Origin: a virus | Lineage: Duplodnaviria; Caudoviricetes | Length of the DNA stretch: 49,182 nucleotides | IMG/VR virus record: IMGVR_UViG_3300020365_000024 | Coordinates: 1-49,182 of that record | Direction: 5' to 3' (one strand) | Shown here: one piece after another, positions 3,165 to 45,923 of the stretch | Position numbering within the stretch: the first letter of the stretch is position 1 | How the letters are laid out: each line of letters opens with the position of its first letter | Notes under the pieces: model-generated | What the model was told of the DNA's origin: nothing | What the model saw: the letters and a program-made list of their open reading frames with translations, nothing else | Databases searched by the model: none | Program-made: the position numbers and the translations under genes

Positions 3165-3195
3165 AAAAAGGGGGGTCCTAGGACCCCCCTTCTTT
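3165..3195. terminator. Bidirectional intrinsic terminator between convergent genes
   Basis: Perfect 24-nt palindrome AAGGGGGGTCCTAGGACCCCCCTT (3168-3191), with an A-run on the left and a T-rich tail on the right. Confidence 0.9.
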
Positions 3196-3531: not shown

Positions 3532-6500
3532 TTATGCTTGTGATTCTTTCCAGGTTACCCTAGCAGAAACAGAATATGGGTTATTTGTGCTAACATCTGA
3601 AGAGTCAACGATATTTGCGATGACTGTCAGAATGTCAGGACCGTTCGGGAATACTCCGTCACCGCCCAAGATTGAGTTGCCAAGGTCAGAGATCTCTGAA
3701 AGATCATAGTCAGTTGCTTGTGTCTGACCATTACCAGCACCAGATGCTCTGAATGAGAGAATAGTTGATCCACCCGCAACAATGTCAGAAGATGAGTGTC
3801 TTACAAGTTGACAGAGCGAAGGTTCTTGGACGTTCTGATATGCGTCAGTACCCAATTGAGCATTCAGAATCAAACTAATCTCTGTTTCGTGTGTAGTAAG
3901 AATACCAACGGAGTCAAGAGCTAACTGCATTCGGTTGATAATCTCACGTTCGCCAAGTGCTCCCGTGATTGATGAGTCAACAGATGGTGCGAGTCTAATT
4001 GAAATAAGTGGAATGTCAGTAGGAATAACGTTATCAACACCAACTGGAGCACCTGAACCGAATGTAGTTGAGTTAGGAACTGCAGGGTTACCGATCTGAC
4101 TGTAGATTCTACTATAATAGTTTCTTGGGAACAGATCGTTAGATCCCTCTACATACGCGATGTAAACAAAATAGGTACTACCAGAGATTCTTGACTTAGG
4201 ATCAATAGATCTGCCATTTTCAAAGTAACCGTTAGCAACAGATGAGTTGTAAATGACAGTGTTAGATGCAAGAGAACTTGCATTGCCAGAAGAGAATGGA
4301 ATCTTGAGGAAGTATCTTCTAGTATACCAGTTTACATACTGCTCTTCAATAGAAGAGTTGCTGTTTGTTGAAACACTGGTGGACGTTGCATTAGTATACT
4401 TCTGAACGTTACCTGATGCCGTGAACAAGTATGCTTCGTCATCCTGATACATACCATCCATAATAACTGAAGTACCCCAGTGGAACAGAGTTCCAACATA
4501 ACTTGGAGCAACTCCATTTTCAATTTCATAACGTGCAGGCAGGTTACCTGAACGGAAGTAAGATTCGGTCAAACGGTTGTTGTGCTTGAATTCGTGGACG
4601 TACTTGACATGACCGTTCTGATCCTTGAATCCGAAGCGGATCTTACCAGCACCATACCAGGAGTAATCCATGTAGCACATCTGGATCTTGGAAATATCGA
4701 GGCTATAACCAGATGGACCAGTACCATCTGCTCTATCAATATTCCAATTTGATTGACCAACGCGAGTATCAACTGTCTTAGTGCAGATGACATTAGTAGC
4801 ATCAATTCCTCTATATGCAGGTTGAATTGTTAACTGGCTATTACTGGTTACTTTAACAACTCTGTATGACATACCACGAATAACAATATGATCACCGTGA
4901 GCAAGTTCAGTAGTAAACTTAGTTTCAGTACCAGTTACAATGTTACTTCCTTTAGTAACAGTAATTGTTCCAGGAAGTTGAAGAACAGAACTTCTTCTTA
5001 CACAGTTGAGGGTGTTTCCATCAAACTCATAGAAGAAACCATTTTGCTCATCAAACATACCTGCGCGAATATCACATTCAGTCCAAGAAAGAACTTGTAC
5101 TTTAGGGAATCCACCAGAAGAACTATTGTTGGGAGTCTGATCAAGGATGTACTTAAAGTTAAACTCATCAATAAGATCACAGACATATGAAGTATGGTTG
5201 AATTCAGTTTGGTCTGAGTCAACAATCTTAACTTGAAGATCCAGACTTAAATTATGTGGTTTAGATGTTTTTACAACACCCTTCTCAATTTGATGGAATG
5301 TAATCGGATCATTAACAGCACTGGTAAGAAGTTTATCGAGTTTAACTACCGTTGCACTAACAATCTTCTTAACTCTTGTTCCATCTGGAACGCCTTGACC
5401 ACTTACGGGCATACTAACAAGAATGCCACTGGTATCTGCTACGGTAAGATCTGCATCACCCAATGAACCAGTTGCGGTAAGAGTTTGAGCAGTTCCTACT
5501 GCTTCATATTGAAGGTCAAGAACTGGAATCAGAGGAATAAAGTTGATTGCGTATGAAGTCTGGATACCTTTACCTGACTGATAACGGAAGTACTTACGAG
5601 TCTGTCTAGAAATTCTAGAGTTAGGTGACTTAGAAGTACCGATTTCCATACCACCATCAAATGGTCTGTGGAGATAGAATCCATCAGGACGTACATAGAT
5701 GTAGGAAGGAATCAGATAAACAATACTAGAACCAGTGAAATTGAATTCACTATCTACAAGAAGATTATCATCATCAGTGATAGCAGTAATTGTTTTCTCA
5801 ACAATAGTACCAGGAGTTCCTGGATTGACAACTTTTAATTTATCTCCAATCTTAAAGAATCTCTGGAATGCAGCGGTTGATCCCTCAACAGCTCTTGAAC
5901 CACTAGTAATTGTTAATGTGCCAGGACCAGTGACCTCACCAGACAAGTTGCTGCTATAGAAAGACTGAACTCCTGCACCAGCAGTAATTGCAATTCCAGT
6001 ACCAGCTTGAGCATCTGATTCAGAAGCACAAACTTTGAAGTAGTTGTTGTCAACAATAGAGATCCAGTAATCAGCACCATCAGTAAGACCATTAACCACT
6101 GTTCCGCCTTTGGCGTCATAGATTACTCTAGTTCCAGTTCCAAAGAAGTGATTGTCGATGTTGATGAGATTAGCACTAACATCATTGGCAGCATTGAAAC
6201 TCTTTGTTGAAGGAGGAACTTTGAATGGAACCGTTACTTCAAGTTCAGTCTCACTGATCGCTTCGGTTGTGGTATAAGAACCATCAACTACACCAAAGGC
6301 AGCAGTAGTATTTTCAAATGACTGAATACCTGAACCCTGAGAAGTAATTGTAATAGCTGAACCACCCTGTGAAGAAGACAGAGTGAATCTATCTCCATTG
6401 ACTGCAGTTACATAATAAGAATTACCACTGGTTAGACCACCAAGTTCTGTTCCTTCTGTTTCATACTTGAGAAGTTCTCCATTAGAGAACTGGTTGCTTG

Positions 6501-9144
6501 CAATATAAATGGAGTTTCTAAGTGGGTTAACCTGAATTGCAGTAAAGGTTTGCGTTCCAGTTGCACCAGCAAGTCTCAGCGGAGAAGCACCCGTGCTTGA
6601 TTTAATTCTGAAACGGTTGGCATCAATTCTATCAATGTACCAAGTACCACTACTAGTACTGGTTCTATTACCATGAACATCATAGTAGTAGTAAATATTA
6701 CCAGTGCTTGATAGAGTCGCACTATCATTGGTCGAGAAACCGTGATTTGCTGCATAGAAACTATCATTAGTAGATGTATTTCTCTTCAGAAGAGCAATAT
6801 AGACGTTAGTATTGCCATCAGAATTAACACTGTTGAAGTAGTGGTTAATATCACTATAGTAATAACCCTGAAGATACCAGAAGTAAGATTCAGTACCATA
6901 AACGTTTAAGTATCCAGTTCCATTCCAGCTGGTTGCATAGAAACTTCCCGTCCAATAAGATCTCGCGTTGCGTCCTTGATAACCACCTACGGTATAACCA
7001 TAACTATAACCACCATTGTTCTGACCGTTAACACCATAGTTTTCATAGTCGGTAATGAAGTCATATGTACCCTGCCAACGGGAATTTCCTAATGGAAGTC
7101 CCTGTCTGTGGTAACCATAAGTTCTCCACGATGTGCTGAAGGCAAATCTCCAAGCATAGTTGTAATAAAATTCTTGTGAACCACCATATCCAGAACGATT
7201 AGTGGAGAAGCAGGCTGTAAGATCCCATGGTTGACCACCTAAACCAAAAGTGCTGTTAATATTTCTGATATCATAACCAGAGTAATCACCACCCCAGTTC
7301 CAAGCATATGTGTACCAGTACATGTAGTGGTCACCATAAGACTTATATTCTCTATAAATGTTATAGACAAGACCAAGACTGTGACTACCATAATCAAATG
7401 ATCCGCCAGCGGAAAGATTAAGACGATAGTTTAATCTTTGAGAATTGTTTAAATAGAATCTATTGCTGTCAATACGCTCACAATAGTAAACCTGCATTCT
7501 TTCCAAACCGCCGAGTGGCGTATCACCAGGAGAAGGATAATAAAGCATGGCAGCACGATTGTGGAACCCATGATTATTAATTGTAATAATATCACTGCCG
7601 TAATTTACGTCACTGGCGTCAAAACGTTTGGTGAAAGTTGACTCGTAATTATATGGATTTGTTCGAGTTGGGTCATTTTGAACATTGACACTAGTTTGTT
7701 GTAAAGTGTCAACGAAGTCATTGCCATCAGGAGCAACAGCCGTTGGATCAACAACATCAAGGATTTTTGGTGATACTGTATTTACAAAATAGAAATTAGT
7801 ATTATCAGCAAATCCATGTTCTGATGCAGTAGTCAAAAGAACTTTTGATTGAGTTGCGAAATCAACAGTAAAAGTTCCTCCCATTCCAGCATGGTTGGAA
7901 CAATAGTATGATAAAGATGATCCAGTTGGATCAGTATTTGTCAGATAAATTCTAACATATGCTCCTGCTGTTCCTTCTGTTCCACTACGATACACATAAG
8001 TACTGTATTCAGAACCACCACCATGAGTACCATCAGCGGTTGTAGAGAATGTGAATGGATGACCTGAGTTAGAAGCATCAGATACATCAAAGATATATAC
8101 TGCCTTTCTGTTAAGGTCGTAACCTGGATCTAAGAGTCCACCAATAAAGTATCTGTTTTGTGGGTTAGAAATACCACTGCTGGCAATCTCATATGTTCCA
8201 GCAGCACCAATAATTGTTAACGTGTCTGCATCTGCAAAAGTTCCGTTGTCAATATCAACAATCAGAATTGTATTTGCAGTAGTACCGACGATAGTTGCGT
8301 TGGCAGTTCCATTACTAATAGATGATCCAATGATGACATCCGATGCAACTGTAGTGGTAACAGTAAGGGTGGTTACACCTTTAACAGTTACTGCCTTTGT
8401 AGTAAAGTCAGCAGTAATTCCTCTGGTTGGAGAAAGATTTACTTGTGAACCTTGGAAAAACTTACCTGGAATAATGGAAGTATAAGTTCCTTGAAGTTCA
8501 TTAGTAGCAGTCTGATTAGATCTTGCTTTATATGTAAATGTAGTTGTGCTAGGAACTGACTGAATCAGATAAGCACCTTCAGCAGTGAGTGAAGAAAGAC
8601 CCGTTACAGTAATAGGCACACCAACTTGTAAGTTGTGGTCATACTGTGTAGTAACAGTAATGATTTCACTTCCAACGGTAGATTCTACCTTAGTAATGTA
8701 GGGAATTGTGGTATCAGCAGTAGACGCATAGAACGAAGGAATATTATTAATAGTCTGTAAAGTTTCCCACTTAGAAGACTGAGGACCGTACTCAAAGTCG
8801 GTGTCAATCAGGTTTTCTGGGTTTGAAACTCTGAACTTAGATACAGCATCAACATAAGTCTCTGAAGGCTCAATATTGATATAATCTTTCTCATAAAAAA
8901 TCTGCAACTCGTCATTTTCTGACATTGCATTTGTATTCTTCGTCAATACAAATGTAGTCTCATCTGCAGCTGCATCATATGATCTAGATGTAAGACCTAA
9001 GAATGCGTCTGAGAACGTATAAATTGTCTCATTTGCAGTTACGTTTGTAATTAGAAGCAATCTCTTGCTTGCGATATTACCCTTTACCTTAATAGTATTA
9101 GTTGAAGGTGTGAAGGTGTAATAATGTACTAATTTTTTTGCCAT
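3532..9144 (-). CDS. Large multidomain virion structural / putative receptor-binding protein (1870 aa) with a cupredoxin-like insert
   Basis: N-terminal YTFTPS...RLLLITNVT...IY.F, then DAVSKFRVSNPENLIDTDFEYGPQ..KWE and RQTRKYFRYQSGKG / MDYSWYGAG.IRFG lectin-like core motifs of cyanophage virion proteins, plus repeated HG[FL]..GD/N beta modules. Confidence 0.8.
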   Translation of the reverse strand: MAKKLVHYYTFTPSTNTIKVKGNIASKRLLLITNVTANETIYTFSDAFLGLTSRSYDAAADETTFVLTKNTNAMSENDELQIFYEKDYINIEPSETYVDAVSKFRVSNPENLIDTDFEYGPQSSKWETLQTINNIPSFYASTADTTIPYITKVESTVGSEIITVTTQYDHNLQVGVPITVTGLSSLTAEGAYLIQSVPSTTTFTYKARSNQTATNELQGTYTSIIPGKFFQGSQVNLSPTRGITADFTTKAVTVKGVTTLTVTTTVASDVIIGSSISNGTANATIVGTTANTILIVDIDNGTFADADTLTIIGAAGTYEIASSGISNPQNRYFIGGLLDPGYDLNRKAVYIFDVSDASNSGHPFTFSTTADGTHGGGSEYSTYVYRSGTEGTAGAYVRIYLTNTDPTGSSLSYYCSNHAGMGGTFTVDFATQSKVLLTTASEHGFADNTNFYFVNTVSPKILDVVDPTAVAPDGNDFVDTLQQTSVNVQNDPTRTNPYNYESTFTKRFDASDVNYGSDIITINNHGFHNRAAMLYYPSPGDTPLGGLERMQVYYCERIDSNRFYLNNSQRLNYRLNLSAGGSFDYGSHSLGLVYNIYREYKSYGDHYMYWYTYAWNWGGDYSGYDIRNINSTFGLGGQPWDLTACFSTNRSGYGGSQEFYYNYAWRFAFSTSWRTYGYHRQGLPLGNSRWQGTYDFITDYENYGVNGQNNGGYSYGYTVGGYQGRNARSYWTGSFYATSWNGTGYLNVYGTESYFWYLQGYYYSDINHYFNSVNSDGNTNVYIALLKRNTSTNDSFYAANHGFSTNDSATLSSTGNIYYYYDVHGNRTSTSSGTWYIDRIDANRFRIKSSTGASPLRLAGATGTQTFTAIQVNPLRNSIYIASNQFSNGELLKYETEGTELGGLTSGNSYYVTAVNGDRFTLSSSQGGSAITITSQGSGIQSFENTTAAFGVVDGSYTTTEAISETELEVTVPFKVPPSTKSFNAANDVSANLINIDNHFFGTGTRVIYDAKGGTVVNGLTDGADYWISIVDNNYFKVCASESDAQAGTGIAITAGAGVQSFYSSNLSGEVTGPGTLTITSGSRAVEGSTAAFQRFFKIGDKLKVVNPGTPGTIVEKTITAITDDDNLLVDSEFNFTGSSIVYLIPSYIYVRPDGFYLHRPFDGGMEIGTSKSPNSRISRQTRKYFRYQSGKGIQTSYAINFIPLIPVLDLQYEAVGTAQTLTATGSLGDADLTVADTSGILVSMPVSGQGVPDGTRVKKIVSATVVKLDKLLTSAVNDPITFHQIEKGVVKTSKPHNLSLDLQVKIVDSDQTEFNHTSYVCDLIDEFNFKYILDQTPNNSSSGGFPKVQVLSWTECDIRAGMFDEQNGFFYEFDGNTLNCVRRSSVLQLPGTITVTKGSNIVTGTETKFTTELAHGDHIVIRGMSYRVVKVTSNSQLTIQPAYRGIDATNVICTKTVDTRVGQSNWNIDRADGTGPSGYSLDISKIQMCYMDYSWYGAGKIRFGFKDQNGHVKYVHEFKHNNRLTESYFRSGNLPARYEIENGVAPSYVGTLFHWGTSVIMDGMYQDDEAYLFTASGNVQKYTNATSTSVSTNSNSSIEEQYVNWYTRRYFLKIPFSSGNASSLASNTVIYNSSVANGYFENGRSIDPKSRISGSTYFVYIAYVEGSNDLFPRNYYSRIYSQIGNPAVPNSTTFGSGAPVGVDNVIPTDIPLISIRLAPSVDSSITGALGEREIINRMQLALDSVGILTTHETEISLILNAQLGTDAYQNVQEPSLCQLVRHSSSDIVAGGSTILSFRASGAGNGQTQATDYDLSEISDLGNSILGGDGVFPNGPDILTVIANIVDSSDVSTNNPYSVSARVTWKESQA

Positions 9145-9180
9145 TTGTTAATTTCCTACGTTTATATGTGGTTTACAGAA

Positions 9181-9369
9181 TCAAATACCAAGTGCCACTG
9201 CTAGGGCAACTAGTTGTCTTTGAGTTGCCAGTTCATGTCCACCAGCTCTCACCCCGTCATGCACAACAGCGGTATTTTTATCAGTATCAACAGTGATTTC
9301 ACCTTCAGCACCGATGAAAGTTTGATGCTGGGCAGTCGTTCCTCGTCGGAATTGAACTTGGGTAGTCAT
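9181..9369 (-). CDS. Stand-alone Mtd_N-like (major tropism determinant N-terminal) domain protein, 62 aa
   Basis: QVQFRRGTTAQH..F.GAEGEITVDTDK...VVHDG...GG is the Mtd_N pattern. It ends in a hydrophobic VALAVALGI tail. Confidence 0.85.
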   Translation of the reverse strand: MTTQVQFRRGTTAQHQTFIGAEGEITVDTDKNTAVVHDGVRAGGHELATQRQLVALAVALGI

Positions 9370-9398
9370 TTCTATCTAAGCTGGAGATTTTCTTCTTT

Positions 9399-9406
9399 TA
9401 TTTATA
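9399..9406 (-). promoter_or_regulatory. T4-type late promoter
   Basis: Exact TATAAATA in the 44-nt gap before the 62-aa gene, followed by the ATG at 9369. Confidence 0.85.
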
Positions 9407-9413
9407 CAAATTA

Positions 9414-12400
9414 TTATATTATAGTGCTGTAAGTTCTTGGTGGGCTAAAGAGGATAACCTTATTATCTGAGACTCCGCCGACTCTAAATTCTGCGGTGGT
9501 GGGTTGTGTGATTCTAGTAACACTTCCTGGGTTTTCTCCACTAATTCTAAACAGACTTGTAGAAACAACCTCTCCTTGTGCCCCGACTGATGTTTCGTCA
9601 TAATCAATTGTTCTTGCAATTGTTGTGCTGACGACTGAGAAGAGTGAACCAGAACCAACATAATCATCAGTCTTAGATTCATCTGCATTTCCAGAGGCAC
9701 TAACATATGCAAATACTTCGTTACCAAATGTGAGTTTGATATCTGTTGCTTCACCCGAAACCTTAGTTGATCCTTCAGTATCATAGTTGCCCTTAGTGAA
9801 GGATTCTGTAGCACCACCGCGTGTTTCAAACAGAGTAGTGTTCTCAACATCAATTGTTCTGGATTCAGCGCCACCACCGAATGTAGTAAGATTGCCAGAT
9901 CCAATGAAATTGAGAGTGATGACAGGGACTGCTTCGCCACTGACACTTGCGGATCCAGAAGCATTGAATCCGCGAGTTCTGATGACTGGTTCGGCAGTTC
10001 CACCAAATTCGTAAAGAACAGTTTCTTCTGCTGGATTGAATCCAACAACTTCTGCTCCGCCACCGAACGTTGAAAGTTGACCTTCGCCTGCGTAGATTCT
10101 GGTTGCTCTGTTTTTGGAATCTCCAGAGACGAATGTTGTACCAGAACCAATCTTTGTGCGGGCGAATGGTGCTTGTGCTTTGCCCGAAACTGTAAAGAGT
10201 CCTGTAGATTCTTCTGCAACAGTGGCAATTTCTTCACCACCACCGATAGAGAAGAGTGAACCAGAACCAGCAAATCCGCGAGTTCTAATGACTGGTTCGG
10301 CAGTACCATTGAATTCAAAGAGTCCTGTAGATTCTTCAGCAACAGTTGCAGATTCTGCTGCACCACCGATAGAGAAGAGTGATCCAGAACCACTAAAGTT
10401 GAGAGTGATAACTGGAACTGCATTTCCATTAATTGCTGCAGAACCAGATCCTTGCTTAGTTCTGGTGAAGGAATTCTGATCGCCACCAGAAGGAACAAAC
10501 AGTGCTGTGCTTTCTGCTTCACTGACTGCAACTGCTTCTGCTGCACCACCAGTACCGAAGAGTGAACCATCGCCAACATGAGATGCTGTACGTTTTTCTG
10601 TTGCAGTACCACTAATAACTTCGGTTCCAGAACCATCATAATTAAGAGTGATAACTGGTACTGCAGCACCAGAAGGTACGAACAGAACTGTAGATTCTGG
10701 TACTGCAATTGTTGTAGATTCAGCACCACTGCCAAATCCGAACATTGATCCGCCACCGAATAGGATAACGCGGATACGAACGATGGGTTCACCACTAAAC
10801 TTGAATGCTCTAGTCTCAATATCTGGGTTGAATCCAACAACCTCGGCGGAAGATCCAGCAGTGAAGAGTGTTCCAGAACCATCATAATTAATGGTTCGTA
10901 CAGGGACTGCATCTCCATAAACATTAAATTTCTCACCTTCAGGATTAGTGAAGATGTTGAATAAGAGTTGCAGTTCTGGAGTACCAGACAATCTTGGTGA
11001 TCCGTCTGGGCGACCTCTCCAATGTGGGTTGAACTTGGAAGCAGCGGTGCCATTCAGTGTGAAGATAACTGTATCTTCTAACGGAGGTGTGATACCTCTG
11101 GATTCTGCTGCACCACCAATTCCGAACAGTGAACCAGAAGTTCCAGGATCTCTGTCATCACCATAGTAACCGAATACGCTGATCTTGCGAGTTCCACCGT
11201 CGCCGTTGACGAATGCAGAACCACCGATCTTGCCGTAGATGGAGTTGACATAACGAGGTGATGGACGATATCTGAGCCATTCTTCACCCTTATCATGGGT
11301 GTACATTCTGGAGAAGACACCCTTGGATACATAAGCACCCTTGAATGCTGAAACTGCAGTACCCAGAATTTTAGGACTATGATCAGGTGCTCCTCTCCAG
11401 TGAGGACGGAATCTGACGGCAGCATTTGGTGCCAGAGGAGTATCCTCTGGATATTTGATGAATCCAGATCCAACATAATTTTCAACATGTTTCTCAACTG
11501 CAGCACCAGAGAATCCGAAGAGGAAGGTTTCTTCTGGTGGGTTGAATCCGACAACTTCGGCGGAAGATCCAGCAGTAAAGAGTGAACCACCAAAATCACC
11601 AGCAAATGTTTGTTTATGTCCACTGTCTCCACCAGCAATTCTGAACAGACCGAATGGATTCTCTTTGCCAGGAAGAATAACTAGATCACCGTGATCAATA
11701 GTTGGTGGCAGATAAGCATTTGTTACCGAACCGTAATCTTCTGCTGTTGAATGTGTGGATCCAACGGTTCCGAGATCTTCATCGGTTGTTCCAGCAACAA
11801 CAGAAGATGTATTATAATGATATGTTCTTCTTTCAATTCTATCACCGATGTGGAAGAGTGATCCAGATCCACTGTAAAGACCTTTACTGAAGCTTTCTGT
11901 GAGAGATCCAGTAAAGTTGAAGAGAATTGTATTCTCATCATCACCAGAAGTAACTCTCTCAATCGCAGAACCAGAAATACTAATTTCAAATCTTTCAGCG
12001 GGAGGTGTGGAAGACTTAACTTCAGCACCTTCTCCACTGAATCTGAACAGACCAAATGGTTGTGTGGTATGCGTAATATTGACCTGACCATAATCAATAT
12101 CACCTGTGCTATTTCCACCAACTGTTCCATAATCTTCTACAGTTCCAGCAGTTGTGGTAATTGAACCAAAGTCTTGTGCAGACTCAACAACCTCAATAGA
12201 TTCAGTTGTATAATTATAAACTTTCTTCTCAATCTTATCACCGATCTTGAATAGTGATCCAGTTCCAACAAAATCTCTTCCTCTTGGAGTTTCTGCAGAA
12301 CCAGAAACTTTAAACTGCTCGTCAGGAACACCTCTCCAATGAGGCATGAATCTAAAGTCAGTGGCTGCACTCTGACCTTTATAGAATCTAATAAATCCTT

Positions 12401-15400
12401 CCTTGGCAACATAAGGACCACGGAAGAATTGATCTGTAGATGCTCCAGTGAAACTGAATAATCCAGTAAGTGGATATGTGGTCTGAGTAATACCAACCTG
12501 ACCATTATCAATATCTCCTCCAGTTTGGAGTTGATCTATTTGACCGTAGTCAAGATTATTTTGTGCCGAATCAGTAATTGAACCATAATTTTCTGGAGTT
12601 TCAAATACCTCAACAGATCCAGAATTATAATTCCATGTTGCACGTTCAAATTTATCACCAAGATTAAAGAGTCTGCCTGCACCAACGAAATCTCTAGATC
12701 TTGAAGTCTCAGCAATACCAGTAAGCTTACCTTGCTCATATGGACGTGACCTCCAATGAGGCATGAATCTAAAGTCAGTTGGCGCACTCTTGCCTTTGTA
12801 GATCTTGATAATACCATCTTTGGCAACATAAGGACCGCGTAAGAATTGTGCGAAACCTTTGCCACTGAGTTGATAAAGACCAGTAGCAGATTCAGTGGTC
12901 TGAGTAATACCAACTTGACCATAGTCAAATTCACCACCAGATAGTACATCAGTAATCTGACCATAATCTTCTGTTAGCGATCCTCCACTTGAAGTTTCGG
13001 CAAACTTAATTGATGAAATTCCATAGTGATCATATGGAGATCCACTGGCACTTACTTGATAAAGTCTAAATGCTTGACCGTTATTTTGTGCTGCCTGAGG
13101 AATTGCAATGACAACAGTGCTTAATGTATTGAAACTTGTGTCATTCTCTGCAATGATAGTGTCTATGGTAACCCAGCTACCACCACCATCAAGATATTGT
13201 AAAATTAAATCTTCTCCAGAGTCTGGTTCTTCGCCACCATTACTACCATTACCTTTAATCCCAGTAATTTCTATCTGGTTATAAAGAGCAGTATCATATG
13301 TAAATCTAAACCATCTAGATCCACTGCCTGATGCAAATCTAATATGTTCTCCGATGGCAAATCCACCGCCTGAACCTGATCCATTTCCATTTTGAGACAG
13401 GACAACATCACCATCAGTGCTATACTGAAGGTTGGTTAATTCTGAGGCAGAAAGAGTTACTGGATCTGCATTATCTAATCCACCATAATCAACAGGAGTC
13501 TCTATGACAACTATAGATTCAGTAGTGTATCTAAATGTCGCGCTCTCAAACTTATCGCCAAGTCCGAAGAGTCTTCCACCGCCAATGAAAGGTCTTGCCT
13601 GAGCATATGTGTGGAATTCTCCACCTGGACCATTGCTGATTCTTGGAGGATTAGTTGTAGTAGTATCAGTTCTCCAATGTGGACGGAATCTAAAGTCTGC
13701 AGGATCTTGCTGATCGTTGAAGATTCTGATTGGAGGACTCTGGCGATTCCAATTGAAGGTTGGGAAATATTGCTCTTCTGCAGCACCGTAGATGCGATAG
13801 AGTCCGAATGGATTTTCATCACCGATGATATCACTAACATCACCATAATCTTCAGATAGTGATGGATCATACTCATTGGTAATAACTTCAATTCCATGAT
13901 CCTCAAATACTGTTGCTGGATCAGATACAATACCCCTATCTTCATATTGTTTAGATTCTTGAATTGATGATGTAGTGTAAGAGTATGTCTTACTTTCAAG
14001 TCTATCGCCAATATGGAAGAGTGATCCAGATCCAATAAATGGTTTGACATTTGCGTATGTATTTCCTTCTCCACCAAGACCATTTCTAATCTCAAAGAGT
14101 GCTGTAGACTCACCTGCCTGCGAAACAAACTTGAGGTTGCTGTAACCACCAGTAATTGAAATTCTTGCAGTAGAACCAAGATATGCAACTGGATTGGAAT
14201 GAGCGATGTCACCACCACTCAACTCATATAACTTACCAAATGGTTTAGTAGTCTGGAAAATTCCTACCTGACCAAAGTCAGTCTCACCAAGACCATATTC
14301 TGTAATTTGACCATAATCTGCGATAGAACCAGAAGAAGAAGTAATCTGACCATTATCAATTGGAGTCTCAACTGTTGCGATTGAGGAATCGTTATAGTCA
14401 AATACTGTCGATTCAATACCACCACCAGAACTGAACAGAGTACCAGATGTATAATAAGTGCCTTTGACTGTGATGATGGGTGACATTCCACCAACAATCT
14501 TGAAGAATTCTCCTTTGCTGGTCTGATTTTGAATGAGACCGTAACTATAAACCTGAACTGCAGGTTCTGCAAATTGTACAGTTGCGCGACCACCAGTGGG
14601 GTTAAGTACACCAGATCCATGATATGATGCTTTGAATGGTATAGATGCTCTACCACTAATATTAATATTGCCGAACTTAAAGAATCCTGGTATTAATTGA
14701 CCATAATCCTGAATTCCATTTGTGAATGGTTCCGTGATCGTTCCATAATCTTCGTTGGTTCCAGCAGACTGATCAACAGTTCCTTGATCAACAGAATCAA
14801 TTGTATCGTATACTTGACCTGAACCTGAACTTACAGTAGTGCTCTCTAATAACTTAACATATTCAATACCCCATTGATCAAAAGCAGAACCACTATGTTT
14901 ATCTTGTTGGAATTTTAATACTACATTGCTAGTTTTTGCTGCTTCTGGAATGTCAACTGTTACGAGACTAAAAGTGCTTCCAGTGAATCTTACATCTTCA
15001 GCATCAAACTTAGTAATATAAGTATATGAGAATCCACCATTGGTGCTGTACCAGAGTTGCAGATCTTCATCGGGATCACAGTTCTCTCCACCATTACTGC
15101 TAGTGCCAGCAATCGCAGTAAATTCAAACTGATTATAATTTGTTAGGTCAAGTTGACCCAAGGTAAGTATTCTTGGGTTAGCACCAGCGTTATTACTTGA
15201 ACCTTGACCAGTAAATCTCCAATATGTTGTTGTGCTGGAATTAAATCCACCACTTGAACCTGATCCATTTCCAGATGCTACAGCACTAATGTTACTTCCA
15301 GTATATGCTGAAGTTCCGTTCCAAGGAGCAAGTACAATTTCTGGTACTGTAACTGTAACAGGTATAGAACCAACTTTATATGAGAATACTGCTCTTTCAT

Positions 15401-16751
15401 CCTTCTGACCGATCTCAAAGAGTGATCCAGAACCAGTATATATTCTGCCGAATGCATCAGGAATAATGTGGTTGGCAAGTGTAATACCACCACGACTTCT
15501 GTAATGTGGTAAGAATGCAATATCGCTGCTCTGACCCTCTCCATAGGAGTCAATATGTTTAGCAATGGAAATGGATCCAGAACCAACATGATGACGATTG
15601 CGGACGCTTTGAGCGATACCAGAGACGCTAAAGAATCCTTCTGCCGCCCTGGTGGTTTGTTTGATTGTAATACTTCCATTATCAAGCTCACCACCAGTAA
15701 CTATTCCTGTTACCTGACCATAATCTTCATCATCAATATGAGATGTAGTAACACTACCATTATCTGCAACTGGTTCTAAAGTTACTGCAGACTCAGTAGT
15801 GTAATCATATACCTTCGCTTCATCACCACTATTGAATCCAAACAGCACTCCGCTGCCTTGATATCCTACTCTTGCAAATGCTTCTGGATTTCCGCCATGG
15901 AATCTTAATCCAATGACATCTCTTCTGATGAATTGTCCTGTCGCAACATCACGACCAACAATGTAAATTTGATTAAATGGTTCGTCAAGAGCTTCGTCAA
16001 CGCTACCACGAAGTCTAAGTGAACCAGAACCGCTATATGCCCTAAAAGAATTACTTAGAACATCAATTCCTTTGATGTTGAATAGTCCGAAGGGATTGCT
16101 GCCACCGAAGTCAACGATATTTCCGTTGTCGGTCTCTCCTCCAGTAACTATTCCTGTTATTTGACCATATTCATTAGAAGAACCTACGGCAGTAGAGACT
16201 GATCCATAGTCTACATCACTGCCATAGGTTATTACTGCATCTTCATTATAGATGCTTGTGGTGCTATCATTTCCAGCACCACCATACTTGATAGACGGTA
16301 ATGTACCAGAACCGCCAATATACGGAGCAACCATGCGCTCCAGACCACTGCCAATCTCAAATAGAGATCCAGAACCAATCCATGCTTGTTTTCTGATAAC
16401 AATAGCACGCTCACGCAGTATAATTGGTTCTGCAGTTGCTACAAAAACTATAGTGGCAGAGTTTTCTTCTCCACCACTAAAGTTGATATTACCTGATACT
16501 GGATACAGTGTTTCAGTAATCCAAACGTCCTCATAATCAATATATCCAGTAACTTCATTTACAATATAATCTTGACCTACAGGAACAATAAAATCACCAT
16601 TTACAACACCAGGGGTGCCGTCCTGAACGATGTAATCAAACATCTTAACGCCATGATCCACCACGGTTGCAGCAACATCAGTGATGCTACCGAAATCCTC
16701 GGTTTCATAAACATGAATCTGTGATGAATCGTAAATATAGACGTTGTTCAT
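9414..16751 (-). CDS. 2445-aa repeat-built virion protein (putative scaffold/fibre) with two Reelin-subrepeat-like inserts
   Basis: Long Gly/Ser/Thr-rich ORF with many GSGSLF..G..E and D[YNFH]G.[IV] repeats, located in the late structural operon. Confidence 0.8.
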   Translation of the reverse strand: MNNVYIYDSSQIHVYETEDFGSITDVAATVVDHGVKMFDYIVQDGTPGVVNGDFIVPVGQDYIVNEVTGYIDYEDVWITETLYPVSGNINFSGGEENSATIVFVATAEPIILRERAIVIRKQAWIGSGSLFEIGSGLERMVAPYIGGSGTLPSIKYGGAGNDSTTSIYNEDAVITYGSDVDYGSVSTAVGSSNEYGQITGIVTGGETDNGNIVDFGGSNPFGLFNIKGIDVLSNSFRAYSGSGSLRLRGSVDEALDEPFNQIYIVGRDVATGQFIRRDVIGLRFHGGNPEAFARVGYQGSGVLFGFNSGDEAKVYDYTTESAVTLEPVADNGSVTTSHIDDEDYGQVTGIVTGGELDNGSITIKQTTRAAEGFFSVSGIAQSVRNRHHVGSGSISIAKHIDSYGEGQSSDIAFLPHYRSRGGITLANHIIPDAFGRIYTGSGSLFEIGQKDERAVFSYKVGSIPVTVTVPEIVLAPWNGTSAYTGSNISAVASGNGSGSSGGFNSSTTTYWRFTGQGSSNNAGANPRILTLGQLDLTNYNQFEFTAIAGTSSNGGENCDPDEDLQLWYSTNGGFSYTYITKFDAEDVRFTGSTFSLVTVDIPEAAKTSNVVLKFQQDKHSGSAFDQWGIEYVKLLESTTVSSGSGQVYDTIDSVDQGTVDQSAGTNEDYGTITEPFTNGIQDYGQLIPGFFKFGNINISGRASIPFKASYHGSGVLNPTGGRATVQFAEPAVQVYSYGLIQNQTSKGEFFKIVGGMSPIITVKGTYYTSGTLFSSGGGIESTVFDYNDSSIATVETPIDNGQITSSSGSIADYGQITEYGLGETDFGQVGIFQTTKPFGKLYELSGGDIAHSNPVAYLGSTARISITGGYSNLKFVSQAGESTALFEIRNGLGGEGNTYANVKPFIGSGSLFHIGDRLESKTYSYTTSSIQESKQYEDRGIVSDPATVFEDHGIEVITNEYDPSLSEDYGDVSDIIGDENPFGLYRIYGAAEEQYFPTFNWNRQSPPIRIFNDQQDPADFRFRPHWRTDTTTTNPPRISNGPGGEFHTYAQARPFIGGGRLFGLGDKFESATFRYTTESIVVIETPVDYGGLDNADPVTLSASELTNLQYSTDGDVVLSQNGNGSGSGGGFAIGEHIRFASGSGSRWFRFTYDTALYNQIEITGIKGNGSNGGEEPDSGEDLILQYLDGGGSWVTIDTIIAENDTSFNTLSTVVIAIPQAAQNNGQAFRLYQVSASGSPYDHYGISSIKFAETSSGGSLTEDYGQITDVLSGGEFDYGQVGITQTTESATGLYQLSGKGFAQFLRGPYVAKDGIIKIYKGKSAPTDFRFMPHWRSRPYEQGKLTGIAETSRSRDFVGAGRLFNLGDKFERATWNYNSGSVEVFETPENYGSITDSAQNNLDYGQIDQLQTGGDIDNGQVGITQTTYPLTGLFSFTGASTDQFFRGPYVAKEGFIRFYKGQSAATDFRFMPHWRGVPDEQFKVSGSAETPRGRDFVGTGSLFKIGDKIEKKVYNYTTESIEVVESAQDFGSITTTAGTVEDYGTVGGNSTGDIDYGQVNITHTTQPFGLFRFSGEGAEVKSSTPPAERFEISISGSAIERVTSGDDENTILFNFTGSLTESFSKGLYSGSGSLFHIGDRIERRTYHYNTSSVVAGTTDEDLGTVGSTHSTAEDYGSVTNAYLPPTIDHGDLVILPGKENPFGLFRIAGGDSGHKQTFAGDFGGSLFTAGSSAEVVGFNPPEETFLFGFSGAAVEKHVENYVGSGFIKYPEDTPLAPNAAVRFRPHWRGAPDHSPKILGTAVSAFKGAYVSKGVFSRMYTHDKGEEWLRYRPSPRYVNSIYGKIGGSAFVNGDGGTRKISVFGYYGDDRDPGTSGSLFGIGGAAESRGITPPLEDTVIFTLNGTAASKFNPHWRGRPDGSPRLSGTPELQLLFNIFTNPEGEKFNVYGDAVPVRTINYDGSGTLFTAGSSAEVVGFNPDIETRAFKFSGEPIVRIRVILFGGGSMFGFGSGAESTTIAVPESTVLFVPSGAAVPVITLNYDGSGTEVISGTATEKRTASHVGDGSLFGTGGAAEAVAVSEAESTALFVPSGGDQNSFTRTKQGSGSAAINGNAVPVITLNFSGSGSLFSIGGAAESATVAEESTGLFEFNGTAEPVIRTRGFAGSGSLFSIGGGEEIATVAEESTGLFTVSGKAQAPFARTKIGSGTTFVSGDSKNRATRIYAGEGQLSTFGGGAEVVGFNPAEETVLYEFGGTAEPVIRTRGFNASGSASVSGEAVPVITLNFIGSGNLTTFGGGAESRTIDVENTTLFETRGGATESFTKGNYDTEGSTKVSGEATDIKLTFGNEVFAYVSASGNADESKTDDYVGSGSLFSVVSTTIARTIDYDETSVGAQGEVVSTSLFRISGENPGSVTRITQPTTAEFRVGGVSDNKVILFSPPRTYSTII
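12334..12840 (-). repeat. Intragenic direct repeat with 417-nt (139-codon) period
   Basis: ctccaatgaggcatgaatctaaagtcagt starts at both 12334 and 12751, and ttggcaacataaggacc recurs at the same offset. Confidence 0.85.
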
Positions 16752-16768
16752 TAAGTTCCCGTTGCATT

Positions 16769-16792
16769 AAAAGGGGGGACATAAATCCCCCC
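16769..16792 (-). terminator. Intrinsic terminator (short U-tail, possibly leaky) between the 390-aa and 2445-aa genes
   Basis: Minus strand GGGGGGA-TTTATG-TCCCCCC-TTTT. Confidence 0.75.
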
Positions 16793-16828
16793 ACAAAGAA
16801 ACATAACAAATAAGATGTATACTATATA

Positions 16829-18001
16829 TCAGTCGAGGCTGACATTAAGTGTGATCTTAATTTGGTCACCGTTGTTCTGAATTGGGTATGGACCATTTGT
16901 GAATCTCTCAGCGAACATGATGCTGCTGTGGAGAGTCAGGTCACCAGTTCCCTGCAGAGCAGGTACGGTGTGGAACGTGTTTGCATCGGGTACTTCAAAT
17001 ACGGTATAAGTACCAGCAACAGCGGTTGAGGTTGTGCCTTGAGCGATGTAGATAACATCACCAACAGTCAGACTATGACCAGTAGCACTTACTTTGCTAT
17101 AGTCAAGAGTGATGGAAGAGTCGGTAGCAACCTGAATGTTATCAGTCAGATCAGCACTGAGGTAAATGATTCTCAGGAGACGATCAATACCGATGATTGT
17201 TGTGCCTCCAGGAACAGCGTTGTTGCCCCCAACGGTCATACCAACACAGATATCATCCATGATTGATGCAACGTTAGGCAGAGTGATAAAGTTCTGACCA
17301 ACAGTACCGATACAAGGATCAGTGTTATCACCCTTGTTCAGAGTTGTAGCAGCGGCAGCGGCAGCAGCATCCTCAACACCATGGATTGCCAGTGGCATGT
17401 TGTTTGCTCTTGCCAGATAGTAACCATAGATGTTACCAGCGGCAGCTGAGAATGTGAAAGTTTGCTCGGGATATGTAGCAGTTGTAACTCCACCAGTGAA
17501 GTTGATTGTTCCTGAAACAGCACCAGAGTTAGCAACGGTCAGAACGACAGTTCCACCATCTACTCTAGAAACCTTAGCGCCAGCACCGATTCCAGTACCA
17601 GAGACGAGGTTACCTACGCTAATTGTACCAGTTACACTGGCAACTGAGATGGTATATGCACCTGAAGAACCAGTGCCAGTACCAGAAGCGATAGGATCGC
17701 CAGCAGTAGAAATCGCCCAACGGTTACCATTCAAGAGAATACCTGTCTGGTTGGTATAGTCTTGATCAGAGCGATTATTTACTGCATATGGATAGTTAGT
17801 GTTAGGAGCAGTACCATAACCATTGGTGTTACCATCAGCATAAGGCTCATAGTAAGCAGTCTGTGAAGGAACATCTCCTTCAGCAGGTGTTGTGTTGGAT
17901 GTGTAAAGCTTAAGAATTAAGTTTCTGGGAATTTCGTGAGTAGCATTCAGCAAATAGCGAAGCGACTCCAATTCACCAATATTTGGTACTAAAAGTGCCA
18001 T
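16829..18001 (-). CDS. Virion structural protein (fibre-subunit-like beta-sandwich with inserted domains), 390 aa
   Basis: Core motifs LILKLYTSNTTP / ATYPEQTFTF..AAGNIYGYY / FAERF...PY.I.NNGDQIKITL, split by small beta-rich inserts. GGAGGA RBS. Confidence 0.8.
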   Translation of the reverse strand: MALLVPNIGELESLRYLLNATHEIPRNLILKLYTSNTTPAEGDVPSQTAYYEPYADGNTNGYGTAPNTNYPYAVNNRSDQDYTNQTGILLNGNRWAISTAGDPIASGTGTGSSGAYTISVASVTGTISVGNLVSGTGIGAGAKVSRVDGGTVVLTVANSGAVSGTINFTGGVTTATYPEQTFTFSAAAGNIYGYYLARANNMPLAIHGVEDAAAAAAATTLNKGDNTDPCIGTVGQNFITLPNVASIMDDICVGMTVGGNNAVPGGTTIIGIDRLLRIIYLSADLTDNIQVATDSSITLDYSKVSATGHSLTVGDVIYIAQGTTSTAVAGTYTVFEVPDANTFHTVPALQGTGDLTLHSSIMFAERFTNGPYPIQNNGDQIKITLNVSLD

Positions 18002-18040
18002 TTAAAATGATCCTCCAAGGACGTTTGAGTTATCTGTTTA

Positions 18041-18048
18041 TATTTATA
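18041..18048 (-). promoter_or_regulatory. T4-type late promoter for the 390-aa gene
   Basis: Exact TATAAATA overlapping the TAA stop of the upstream gene. Confidence 0.85.
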
Positions 18049-18748
18049 AATTTACTTTCAAAGCGATAGCAAATTTTTTGAGTGTTGTAGAAACATTTAT
18101 CACCTCATACTGTAGGATGTCACCAGCATTTAACTGCTTCGTCCATCCAGTTAAGGTAATGTCAGATTTTTTTACTTCATTATTTAGTTCGGGTCTGCTG
18201 TTACCACAAATTGAAGTCCCAGCAGGAAAATCATCAAAATTACATTTTCTAATATCAAGTTCTAATGTTCCGATGTTATCTGCCAATAATACAAACGACT
18301 GAATATTTCCAGTCACGTCAATGGTTAGATAACCTTTGTTTCCAATGGTCATTGGTCTAGAACCATTGTCAACAACATAGTTGATAGTTCTAGTTAAATC
18401 AGCAGTATTTGCTAATGCTACACCAAAGAAAGGAACACTTGAACTAGCAGGAGGAGTTGCGAATGTAATTTGGTCACCAGATACGGTATATCCAACTCCT
18501 GGTTCTAAAATAACATTATCCATAGAGATGATCAATTGCTGATCATTCAATGCTTCATAAGCATCTCCACTAACTGTTAGTGGAAATACTGTTCTGCTGC
18601 CATCAAATAATGATGTTAAACTATCCAGAATTAAATTCTGGTATTGAACACCTTTAGATGGAGCTTCATAATTAAGACCAATGCTATAATCATTGGCAAC
18701 ATTCTGAGTAACATCAAAGTTAGTAGTGCTTACTTCGTAATTGGCCAC
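18044..18748 (-). CDS. Virion structural protein (234 aa, two beta domains)
   Basis: FDGSRTVFPL...LIIS.D.V..EPG..YTVSG..ITF...P module, also repeated in gp7 of this window, plus a C-terminal ..LNAGDIL..V domain. Confidence 0.75.
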   Translation of the reverse strand: MANYEVSTTNFDVTQNVANDYSIGLNYEAPSKGVQYQNLILDSLTSLFDGSRTVFPLTVSGDAYEALNDQQLIISMDNVILEPGVGYTVSGDQITFATPPASSSVPFFGVALANTADLTRTINYVVDNGSRPMTIGNKGYLTIDVTGNIQSFVLLADNIGTLELDIRKCNFDDFPAGTSICGNSRPELNNEVKKSDITLTGWTKQLNAGDILQYEVINVSTTLKKFAIALKVNL

Positions 18749-19086
18749 TATACTGTTACTCCTGGTGTTACCGTTGCAATTCCTTCAATGAATCTAGTCT
18801 TTACTCCACTCGCAGAAGTCAAGACCAAATCATAAACATATCTTCTTGGTTTCAGGGTAGTAGTGACTGTATCACTTAAACTAATTTTTAAAATACCTTT
18901 ACTCCTATCAGCAAAAGTAACTGTAAACGGTGTTGCAGCACTTGAGGTATAATAACTAGTCTTCAGTTTTGCTTCTGCAGTAAATCCTAGAAGATTTACC
19001 GAGGCTCCATCTGAATTCTTGATAGTAAAGGTCGCTGAGAAGTCAGTACCCTGCTCTATCACTAGGTTAATTGTAATTGCGGACAT
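18748..19086 (-). CDS. Small virion beta-sandwich adaptor protein (BppU-like), 112 aa
   Basis: NLVIEQGTDF...F...G...NL.G.T....K...G...ISL....T..L...RYVYD.......KTR..EG...V.PGVT, a conserved cyanophage structural family. Confidence 0.8.
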   Translation of the reverse strand: MSAITINLVIEQGTDFSATFTIKNSDGASVNLLGFTAEAKLKTSYYTSSAATPFTVTFADRSKGILKISLSDTVTTTLKPRRYVYDLVLTSASGVKTRFIEGIATVTPGVTV

Positions 19087-19091
19087 GTACT

Positions 19092-19129
19092 AAAAAAGAC
19101 CTTCCTTGTTATTTATAAGGAAGGTCTTT
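19092..19129 (-). terminator. Intrinsic terminator whose loop carries a late promoter
   Basis: AAAGACCTTCCTT-ATAAATAAC-AAGGAAGGTCTTT-TTT: perfect 13-bp stem plus U-tract. Confidence 0.85.
19110..19117 (-). promoter_or_regulatory. T4-type late promoter for the 112-aa gene
   Basis: Exact TATAAATA, 23 nt before the ATG at 19086. Confidence 0.85.
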
Positions 19130-32790: not shown

Positions 32791-35700
32791 TCACCCTCGC
32801 CAAGCGAGTCTTAAATAATCACCATCTGCGTGTGCAGTTGCTGTTGTAGACTTAGAACCTCTGACAACTGTGAAGTCTTGACCAGAGATTGATGTATATT
32901 CCATAATCTCATCACCAAATTCTAAATATCCCGAAGGTGGGAAGTTGGAAACATCACCAGTTACTGTAACAGTAGTAACTGTGTCATTGATAGCACCATT
33001 GAGTGTGAGACCGTATGAAACATAGGCATCTGTTGGAATGTTGATAATAACACCACCAGCAGAACCGTATGCAACGCCTGCGTGCGTAGTAAAGTCTCCA
33101 ATCGTAATATTTGGAGCATAACGAGTCATATGCTCAATTGTGACTCCAGTTCCAAGGTAATTTGCAAGAGGATCATTAAGTTCTTGTGGTTCAAACTGGA
33201 ACTTAATTTGATCAAATGTATTCAAGTTGTGTGCAAGTCCAGGTTCATTAGTTCTGTCTGCATTATGAAGTTGAGTTTGAACATGAGTAGTTCTTTCTGC
33301 ACTGATCTGCGAAACAACCAGAGGACGAAGATCTTCAACTTCACTCTGATCAACTACACCGAATCCAAGACCAGCGTTACCACCTTCAGCAGTGTAGTCA
33401 ACAACAATATCTTTTTTGAAGAACAATGGTGTATGTGGTCTAACAATTTCATACTTTTTAGCAAAAATCAATTCAGGGGCAGCAGTATAACCAGATCCAG
33501 GATTTGTAATTACAACATTAGTTACTTTACCGTTAGTAATTTCAGCATATGCTTCAGCACCCGTTCCAGGATTATCACAGGTAACTTTAAATAGAACTTC
33601 TGGAGCAACATCATACTCAAGACCAGGGTTTGTAATGTTAACACCAGTGACTTGATAATCAAATACTGGAGGAATACCCATAGTATCACTAATACCCACA
33701 GTATTTTCAATACCAACAGTGTTGCCGTCAGACACAGTTACACCAGTTACGACTGCATTAGCAACAGCATTTTTACCACGAATATATGCGTTATCAGTAT
33801 ATACAAATGCGGTGTAAAGCAAATTGTCAGTATTTTCAAGTGCCTTCTCATCAATTCTGATAATTTCTTTTGGTGTTTCACCATCAATCTTGATAAGATC
33901 CCCTGGTTGAATAATATCACCTGTATTTGCTACCTTATTAAGATAGCGACATCCGTCTGGACTATTACGTCCAATGTATTCAAGATTCTCAAATACATTG
34001 CCATTCCAGATAGAAATTGTTTTGTCAAATGTCTTCCCATAGAAATAGAGACAATGACAATTCTTTCCTACTTGAGGTGCTTCCTTAAAAGTAAGGACGT
34101 TATCAGTAATATTATATGAAACTCCTTCTGACTGAGGAACACCATCAAGTAATACTAAAATTTGATGTACATCAGGAGGAATAATATTATCATCACCAAA
34201 CTGCAATTCAAAGGATTTTCTACTACCATCTAAAAGATGTGAGAAGTTATTTAAAATTTTATATTTACTAAAAGTATAACCGAAGAAATGTCTTTCTCTC
34301 TCAAATGCCTCAGTAAATATAATTTGATTTGGATTTACTGATCTATTAATTGTGTAAGATTCGCCATAAATTTGCATGACACCATCAACAAATATCAATA
34401 GATTTTCGTCTGCCTCAGTTACAACATTTGTCCCATTTTTCTTAAGAAGATCATATGTTTTAGTTGTACCATCAAAGAGAATATCTTTGATTTTATAGGA
34501 ATATCTTGCATCATCAGCACCATCAATAAATTTGAAAAATGTTGAATAGAATGTAGTTCCTGTTTTTGGTTTTTCGTAGAATGTTACGCTAGAATTATTA
34601 TATTCATATTGACCTTCTGTATAAAGAGCATTAGTAACATCGGCGGAATCAAGAGTGCCTGATGTTGTAAGGAAATCAGGTAAAATAGTGAAATCTTTAT
34701 TGTACAACTGGTTTGCAATGGCAAGTTTTGCCATATCACGCGCTTTATTGAATGCTGTTGTAGATTCTGCAAGTTCACCTGCAATACCATTGGTAAGCAG
34801 AGCAGTTCCGTCAATATAACGATCTGTGGCATCAAGAATATTAGAGTTACCGCCAGATCTCATATCAGCGATAATTGCATCAACAATAATTCCAAGATCT
34901 CGCTTACACTTACCTTCTCCGAAGGAAGGAACACGCATAGATTCAATCGGGAGTGCCAATGGTGTTACTAGAGATCCCTGATTGAGATATGTAGTTACAA
35001 TGCTAACAAGGTTGTCAATGTTACTTTGAACATCTGCACATGCCCCATTGCTGTTATTTGCAACAGGAGAATTAACAACAGGTCTTACGATTGCATCAGT
35101 CGCTGCTCTAACAAAAGTATGTGAATAATCACCACCAGAGATTACAGCGTCACTGAGAGCAGATACAAATATATGTGTAGAAGTATCAGTGGAACTACCA
35201 ACATTAATTGTAATTGTAGTTGCGGTCTTCGTTACAATGGGAACGGCAGTGTCAAATGTTTTATCCTTTTTCTTCTTCAGACCATCGGCAACAGAGCGAA
35301 CAAATGTATGTGCCGAAGTGTCGGAAGAAACTCCAACCTTAACTTTGAAAGTGTCATAGTAGACATCAAAGATGGGCAACCACTTACCACTCACGGGATC
35401 TGTGGAGCGAGGATAAGCATGTTCAGTTTGATTGTTATCTCTAGCACATGTAAATACCAAAGAATCATCATCAAATTTAATAAAATCACCATTCTCCCAA
35501 CCATGATCTTCTACCGTGACAGTAAGAACACCTGTAGATGGATTATAATCAGCGGTCTCAATTGTTTTACTGAGTATAGTTGTCTTAGGATATGAATGTT
35601 CGGTAGCATAATTATCATATGCACATGTAAACGTTAATGCCTCATCTCTCAGTTTGATTGATGTCCCTGCACGCAGTGAATGTGCGCCGATGTCCATCGT

Positions 35701-45894: not shown

Positions 45895-45923
45895 ATTATA
45901 TCACATCAATTATGCTTCTGCAA
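45895..45923 (-). promoter_or_regulatory. Sigma70-type promoter with extended -10
   Basis: TTGCAG (45923-45918), 17 nt, TG-n-TATAAT (TATAAT at 45900-45895), 23 nt before the ATG at 45871. Confidence 0.7.

Follow-up and report, generated by a model that had tools for sequence, protein, structure and literature searches.

A gene block of a T4-like cyanophage may encode a branched virion fibre assembled through short peptide plugs

A conserved gene block on the minus strand of a T4-like cyanophage fragment is moderately likely to build a branched virion fibre, in which motif triplets on a beaded rope are plugged into adaptor trimers whose tails hold an adhesin-like protein of 1870 aa. The window, i.e. 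the whole stretch of 49,182 nt that was analyzed, is the 49-kb fragment IMGVR_UViG_3300020365_000024, which is about 26% complete. According to the model, a 2445-aa protein would form an extended rope, stiffened by many copies of a 390-aa bead. Each motif triplet would plug into one putative trimer of a 62-aa Mtd_N protein, and the hydrophobic tails of this adaptor trimer would grip the 1870-aa protein by its N-terminal domain. Such a fibre would likely serve to make initial contact with the surface of the cyanobacterium at many points at once. T4-like cyanophages are described as lacking most T4 fibre genes, with the mode of host contact left open (PMC2984593).

The block lies among the structural genes of a cyanophage of the T4-like type (Kyanoviridae), as indicated by gp25, gp6, a gp7-like giant and gp8, which are encoded together with fibre genes on the minus strand. 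The closest relatives are cyanomyoviruses; among cultured phages, S-CAM1, S-CAM3, S-SSM7 and S-SCSM2R are nearest. The conserved block opens with a gene for a 112-aa LtfC-like beta-sandwich protein of the fibre attachment ring type (18748–19086, −; PF23926, E = 1.5 × 10−4, below the cut-off; phrog_3304, E = 2 × 10−22), which has an equal position in these four phages. It is followed on the minus strand by genes encoding (i) a 234-aa virion structural protein (18044–18748; phrog_10330), a candidate fibre anchor, judging from its positional equivalent in S-SCSM2R, which is annotated as 'tail adaptor protein'; (ii) the 390-aa protein (16829–18001), which is likely a fibre bead of the Gp80 kind that has acquired two insertions; (iii) the 2445-aa scaffold or rope-like protein (9414–16751; motif content, phrog_11522); (iv) the 62-aa adaptor (9181–9369), with its Mtd_N head at 9250–9357 and its hydrophobic tail at 9184–9210; and (v) the 1870-aa virion structural protein (3532–9144; phrog_5838). 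The order 112-234-390-scaffold-Mtd_N is kept in all four cultured relatives. PDB sequence searches with the 1870-, 390- and 234-aa proteins gave no meaningful match. Elsewhere in the window, aa 2005–2072 of a 3322-aa baseplate protein (32791–42759, −) matched the phycobilisome family weakly (PF00502, E = 5 × 10−5) in repeated helical segments, and a 987-aa glycine-rich protein (45910–48873, −), which had no family match, is possibly a polyglycine adhesin.

The preliminary description had proposed that each motif triplet docks one Mtd_N trimer. A survey of gene neighborhoods agrees with this proposal, and we consider it highly probable that D-x-G-x-[IVL] is a plug for Mtd_N. Loci were gathered with three seed queries and from annotated phages, and matches without an upstream ORF were dropped. 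Among the 172 unique genes upstream of Mtd_N, 84 have the strict pattern D[YFLWHN]G.[IVL] within their eight C-terminal residues, compared with 6 of 1193 control ORFs, i.e. far above background and in unrelated phages. When 49 scaffold-type upstream genes were set aside (41 with at least three internal motifs, several others truncated), a relaxed terminal motif was found in 104/119 non-scaffold upstream genes against 36/1350 controls, many of these controls being further fibre genes from the loci themselves; this motif was post hoc, being fixed after inspection. Like the receiver loci described below, the Mtd_N loci represent few lineages rather than independent events, yet they cover unrelated phage types.

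Nine of 11 annotated non-scaffold phages obeyed the rule, i.e. BPP-1 (bbp9), S-TIP37, CRP-3, HTVC008M, AH02, three Vibrio phages and a Syntrophomonad phage, while the upstream plug was absent in Phosso and D6. Unrelated proteins encoded just before Mtd_N end in this motif in podoviruses, siphoviruses and myoviruses alike. Vibrio phage K437b carries a triplet with a spacing of 13 upstream of its Mtd_N gene. A search that started from the 390-aa gene (80 loci, less 24 that lacked a following gene and less the duplicates) showed the motif in 36/37 next genes, and all 18 complete scaffolds were then followed by an Mtd_N gene. In a homotrimeric fibre, three plugs would be supplied by three chains, and a single-chain scaffold would offer a tandem triplet instead. 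One observation counts against this model: Bbp9 (508 aa) contains three motifs, at aa 201, 425 and 503, whereas Mtd is reported as a trimer sited at the fibre ends, two per fibre (PMC2408619). The motif marks where on Bbp9 the Mtd of BPP-1 is probably attached. At five loci (L225, L233, L234, L244 and L251), genes ending in a D-L-G-A-L-type plug both adjoin and lie further upstream of a single Mtd_N gene, which suggests that multiple fibres share one tip.

Within the 2445-aa protein, the pattern D[YNFHQLR]G.[IVL] occurred 25 times, against a mean of 0.86 and a maximum of 4 in 200 shuffles; none of the 18 other minus-strand proteins tested had more than 2 matches. All motifs originally quoted from this protein (DNGQI/DYGQI/DFGQV and others) were recovered. 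About ten triplet modules had been reported, and the plug region (aa 19–1690; 11682–16697, −) indeed holds nine triplets and a degenerate one, one per module of ~130–150 aa; the reported spacing of 14–18 aa did not hold, as motifs follow each other at 13–14 aa, start to start. Seven triplets are clean (starting at aa 181, 330, 655, 799, 1388, 1527 and 1659). The middle motif is degenerate in the triplet at 938/968, the N-terminal triplet (aa 19) is degenerate, and in the triplet at 1088/1262, 1276, a Reelin-like domain splits the first motif from the second. The latter domain (approximately aa 1131–1250; 13002–13361, −; profile matches) is one of two such insertions; the other, a Reelin-subrepeat-B-like domain, spans aa 524–632 (14856–15182, −) and matched PF21471 in two stretches (E = 3.8 × 10−19). 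Among 40 partly redundant scaffold homologues, 334 of 408 within-cluster intervals measured 12–14, and the modules comprised 106 singles, 127 pairs, 127 triplets and 9 quadruplets of recognizable motifs; that so many modules show fewer than three speaks against the model.

The C-terminal part of the scaffold (aa 1700–2445; 9414–11654, −) is of a different kind, consisting of Gly-spaced repeats with a period of 20/41 and no plug motifs in the final 750 aa. This bears on a second explanation, by which the triplets would be the scaffold's own repeat, acting as a three-stranded knot or a bead-binding segment, and the link to Mtd_N would be inherited gene order. It gains some weight from the fact that all scaffold-Mtd_N pairs stem from one cyanophage lineage and that motifs are often degenerate. 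We consider it quite improbable, since the same motif closes proteins unrelated to the scaffold before Mtd_N genes, the 750 aa of repeats without triplets show that the repeat can do without them, and AlphaFold2 (AF2) gave no fold for three modules (aa 1346–1725; pLDDT 40, without secondary structure; shallow alignment of 56 rows). The low AF2 confidence may reflect only the shallow alignment. BLAST self-comparison reported no internal repeats in either the scaffold or the 1870-aa protein. A 544-aa off-frame ORF lies over the C-terminal repeats (9419–11053, −), with similar shadow ORFs in relatives; it and other off-frame ORFs across the scaffold were treated as shadow frames.

The 62-aa gene had been described as a lone Mtd_N domain with a hydrophobic tail and its own late promoter, and all three attributes were confirmed. 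Its product matched Pfam Mtd_N (PF18454) over aa 5–40 with E = 1.3 × 10−15 (57.5 bits against a curated cut-off of 26.3) and the BPP-1 Mtd chains with E = 5 × 10−17; its C-terminus is the nine-residue hydrophobic tail VALAVALGI, and a late promoter consensus is found at 9399–9406. The length of 62 aa is conserved in many homologues, and the tail is present in all 62-aa forms. The hallmark of Mtd and of diversity-generating retroelements (DGR), i.e. a C-type-lectin variable domain plus a reverse transcriptase cassette, was not found; the protein stops at aa 62, and a Pfam scan of 23 proteins of the window gave no match of this kind. A second class of lone Mtd_N proteins of ~65 aa (P0058–P0106) ends in LDPFLLMGA and is probably a converter to a third connector. 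Proteins of 75–84 aa (L249:3762, L226:3735) combine an Mtd_N head with a plug-like C-terminus of their own and are read as daisy-chain extenders.

Gene context also supports the earlier proposal that the adaptor tails recruit the 1870-aa protein, as the pairing of tail and receiver survives a swap of the upstream gene. The candidate tail receiver is the N-terminal domain of ~90 aa (8875–9144, −), which has 336 representatives at E ≤ 0.001 and is nearly always N-terminal among the 150 matches listed. A post-hoc tail pattern was found in 33 of 39 unique genes upstream of this domain and in 14 of 1331 controls; five of the six misses resemble variants, and S-PM2 p176 is a true miss. The upstream families that bear the tail are unrelated to each other, comprising the Mtd_N mini-protein, S-CAM1/3-type fibres of 358–422 aa and the tail fibre of podovirus ctQRb9. 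The S-CAM1 and S-CAM3 homologues of the 1870-aa protein are encoded 15 kb away from Mtd_N and come after a fibre of an unrelated type that ends in VVAFSIALG or AIIYAVALS, and in ctQRb9 the receiver-domain gene follows a tail fibre ending in AVAYAIALGG. The tail therefore travels with the receiver domain rather than with Mtd_N, making the 62-aa protein converter-like. From these neighborhoods, the AxAxALG tail is likely to be another plug in its own right, fitting the 90-aa domain; hence the 62-aa protein would convert between two connector standards. An ESM Atlas search with the 90-aa domain returned nothing beyond uncharacterized clusters and a sub-threshold T7-tail lead. At one further locus (L102:6988-7638), the tail AVAMAVALGY precedes a 107-aa protein starting with MANDFKN; the tail may also serve this different small receiver domain.

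The 1870-aa protein belongs to a family with 62 full-length members (963–4358 aa), in which the N-terminus (aa 1–240) and a C-terminal core (aa 1160–1870, ending in W-x-ESQA) are conserved and the middle is variable. For the core, a confident all-beta fold was predicted (pLDDT 87). Foldseek found no whole-length match in the PDB (TMq at most 0.16) and only weak matches to lectin/LamG-like folds, e.g. heparin lyase I (E = 5.6 × 10−3), galectins and laminin LG; among viral models, from phages as well as giant and haloarchaeal viruses, every strong match was to a protein either uncharacterized or labeled 'virion structural'. Pfam and fold searches revealed no catalytic or toxic domain and no enzyme family. 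The term 'effector', used at first for this protein, is thus not borne out by a family of virion structural proteins, and the protein is probably adhesin-like. Two segments of the variable middle stand out. At aa 410–425 (~7860–7920, −), an insert contains YYCSNHAGMGG, which we take to resemble the copper loop of cupredoxins; a Pfam scan of aa 316–415 gave no match. Another insert, at aa 590–790 (~6775–7375, −), contains 34 Tyr, 29 Gly and 10 Trp in 200 aa, occurs in few family members and is a candidate specificity domain.

The positional equivalents of S-SCSM2R, i.e. ORF111 (scaffold position) and the Mtd_N-headed giant ORF112, are listed in its virion proteome, in line with a place in the virion; its authors describe them as unlikely to be structural and possibly co-purifying (PMC12801897). 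Such co-purification would suit a late intracellular or injected assembly instead of a virion fibre, with the 1870-aa protein as an effector, and no solved homologue fixes the function. This explanation is very improbable given that the genes sit inside the baseplate/fibre module, that homologues are annotated as virion structural proteins, and that the all-beta core gave weak matches to lectin-like folds and matched no enzyme family.

Scaffold, adaptor and 1870-aa protein do not form an obligatory triad, as had been implied; the triad is clade-specific. All four cultured relatives keep the scaffold with another Mtd_N-headed cargo, having a 152-aa or 3400-aa form in place of the 62-aa protein, and the receiver family is absent from S-SSM7 and from a 99% complete relative. 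Occupancy of the scaffold is a separate matter, and it is uncertain, indeed somewhat doubtful, that each of the ten sites is loaded with a 200-kDa protein. In a relative that is 95% complete, one Mtd_N gene and one receiver gene were found, which would imply a single kind of cargo for every site. Alternatively, the 62-aa trimers would mainly cap or decorate the triplets, and the 1870-aa protein would occupy one or a few sites, resulting in a chain with a terminal adhesin. By length arithmetic, ten arms would weigh no less than 2 MDa, carried by modules that follow each other every ~130 aa; moreover, the S-SCSM2R scaffold, whose partner is the 3400-aa Mtd_N fusion, has just one or two recognizable motifs, and in 20 of 21 loci no separate promoter precedes the 1870 gene, all of which speak for capping. 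Nevertheless, we judge it unlikely, because the 1870 gene follows the adaptor after 37 nt and shares its promoter, the search having found nothing terminator-like in between, the tail is conserved without exception among 62-aa forms, and no other cargo is evident in the 95% complete relative.

The arrangement of promoters and terminators, as judged by consensus matching, fits a low-copy scaffold with high-copy bead and adaptor. The late promoter consensus of T4-like cyanophages, TATAAATA (PMC2984593), is present on the minus strand before the 112-aa gene (19110–19117) and before the 62-aa gene (9399–9406; 21/21 related loci). A further consensus match precedes the 390-aa gene (18041–18048, −), where ATAAATA was found in 40/40 related loci with 70 nt of upstream sequence. 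Across 21 loci, a late promoter preceded the adaptor in all, the scaffold in none and the 1870 gene in one. Between the 390-aa and 2445-aa genes lies a terminator-like hairpin followed by a T run (16769–16792, −; spacer z = −2.97), in which a G6-loop-C6-T4 element occupies 16773–16792. The strict terminator pattern was seen in 28 of 42 unique related bead/scaffold spacers and in 0 of 196 controls, and most of the other 14 spacers contain other stems with T runs, as judged by eye. None of the 28 spacers with the strict pattern had a promoter behind it, and a scan for sigma-70 promoters stayed at chance level (48 vs 48.5). It had been argued that the internal promoter supplies adaptor in excess over scaffold; the promoter counts agree, and the newly found terminator strengthens the argument. 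The scaffold would be transcribed by read-through and would therefore be made in fewer copies than bead and adaptor, as a fibre with numerous beads and adaptors on each scaffold would require. RNA libraries yielded contigs of relatives that span parts of the genes for bead, scaffold, adaptor and 1870-aa protein; contigs of this kind cannot rank expression. Downstream, a strong GC-rich hairpin (3168–3191), located between converging genes for 257-aa and 98-aa proteins, likely ends the operon.

The 390-aa gene, located directly upstream of the scaffold, probably encodes the other partner of the scaffold. Language-model features in the ESM Atlas matched the 390-aa protein to PF23140 (Gp80) with a score of 0.95 over 197/256, whereas Pfam and hhalign comparisons of its family with gp80 of phage GP4, whole or with masked inserts, were not significant. 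Short homologues of the family that had been used for alignment proved to be fragments. The GP4 Gp80 structure (8JOU) comprises ten chains, and in GP4, A1002 and Bas63, Gp80-type dimers are described as threaded along an extended rope (PMC13730344; PMC12609058). The GP4 gene after gp80 (AXG67774), taken as the rope by position alone, has a period of 20/40, close to the 20/41 of the C-terminal third of the scaffold; a scaffold repeat profile did not match AXG67774. The lack of a predicted fold for aa 1346–1725 on their own would also suit a rope. We slightly favor the view that the 390-aa protein forms dimers of the Gp80 type, with the 20/41-aa repeats running through them. The rope reading is held with moderate confidence because Pfam, hhalign and the repeat profile fail to join both systems.

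Taken together with the branched fibre proposed above, these features tentatively outline a more complete but less probable scheme, in which at least two interchangeable peptide/socket standards of tailed phages (D-x-G-x-[IVL]/Mtd_N and AxAxALG/90-aa domain), small converters and a beaded rope would yield a ten-armed, multi-megadalton brush, with the subunit ratio set via one terminator and two promoters. If true, fibre architecture could be read from gene ends: such a connector code would make the partners of fibre proteins predictable from sequence alone, and it proposes a concrete fibre architecture for the cultured phages S-CAM1, S-CAM3, S-SSM7 and S-SCSM2R. Our literature search found no descriptions of these connectors; subscription papers, e.g. 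the GP4 and BPP-1 cryo-EM studies, were outside its reach.

Several known systems resemble parts of this design. Gp10-like XD branched tailspikes (CBA120, G7C, KP32) assemble several receptor-binding proteins on one branching protein, at distinct folded sites. Their connectors are different, whereas here one adaptor appears to fill many linear sites, and none of the four proteins matched gp10/XD docking domains or beta-helix tailspikes in Pfam or PHROG. In cellulosomes, the repeated cohesin sites of the scaffoldin recruit cargo through a small dockerin module. This is an analogy only, as the sites described here are short linear motifs, and no match to cohesin or dockerin families was found in Pfam. 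Another related case is the S-PM2 p175–p177 block of virion structural proteins, described as potential adhesin components (PMC9910659), in which p175 is homologous to the 1870-aa protein and the upstream gene lacks the tail. S-PM2d175, a gene under selection, was considered as evidence for the 1870 family and rejected, being a neighbor of the homologue d173.

The rope-and-bead fibres of GP4 (gp80, 8JOU), A1002 (gp39 with gp40/gp41) and the Bas63 whiskers would share the principle of one extended chain with many docking sites, and the Gp80 look-alike gene directly before the scaffold gene and the 20/41 period recall GP4 with its 20/40-type period. Known ropes bind 2–11 dimers by beta-augmentation, and side branches are not described for them (PMC13730344; PMC12609058). 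The scaffold described here differs in its length of 2445 aa, its plug triplets, its inserted Reelin-like domains and its putative second class of clients, the Mtd_N trimers. The Bbp9/Mtd pair of BPP-1 (PF18454; PDB 1YU0–1YU4) shares the same N-terminal domain and the motif on Bbp9. In BPP-1, Mtd has its own receptor-binding domain, whereas in the cyanophage the Mtd_N domain forms by itself a putative 62-aa converter, and a single chain carries the motifs as triplets in tandem. The design is best read as a variant of known multi-site fibre architectures, with peptide-plugged side branches on a rope-type fibre.
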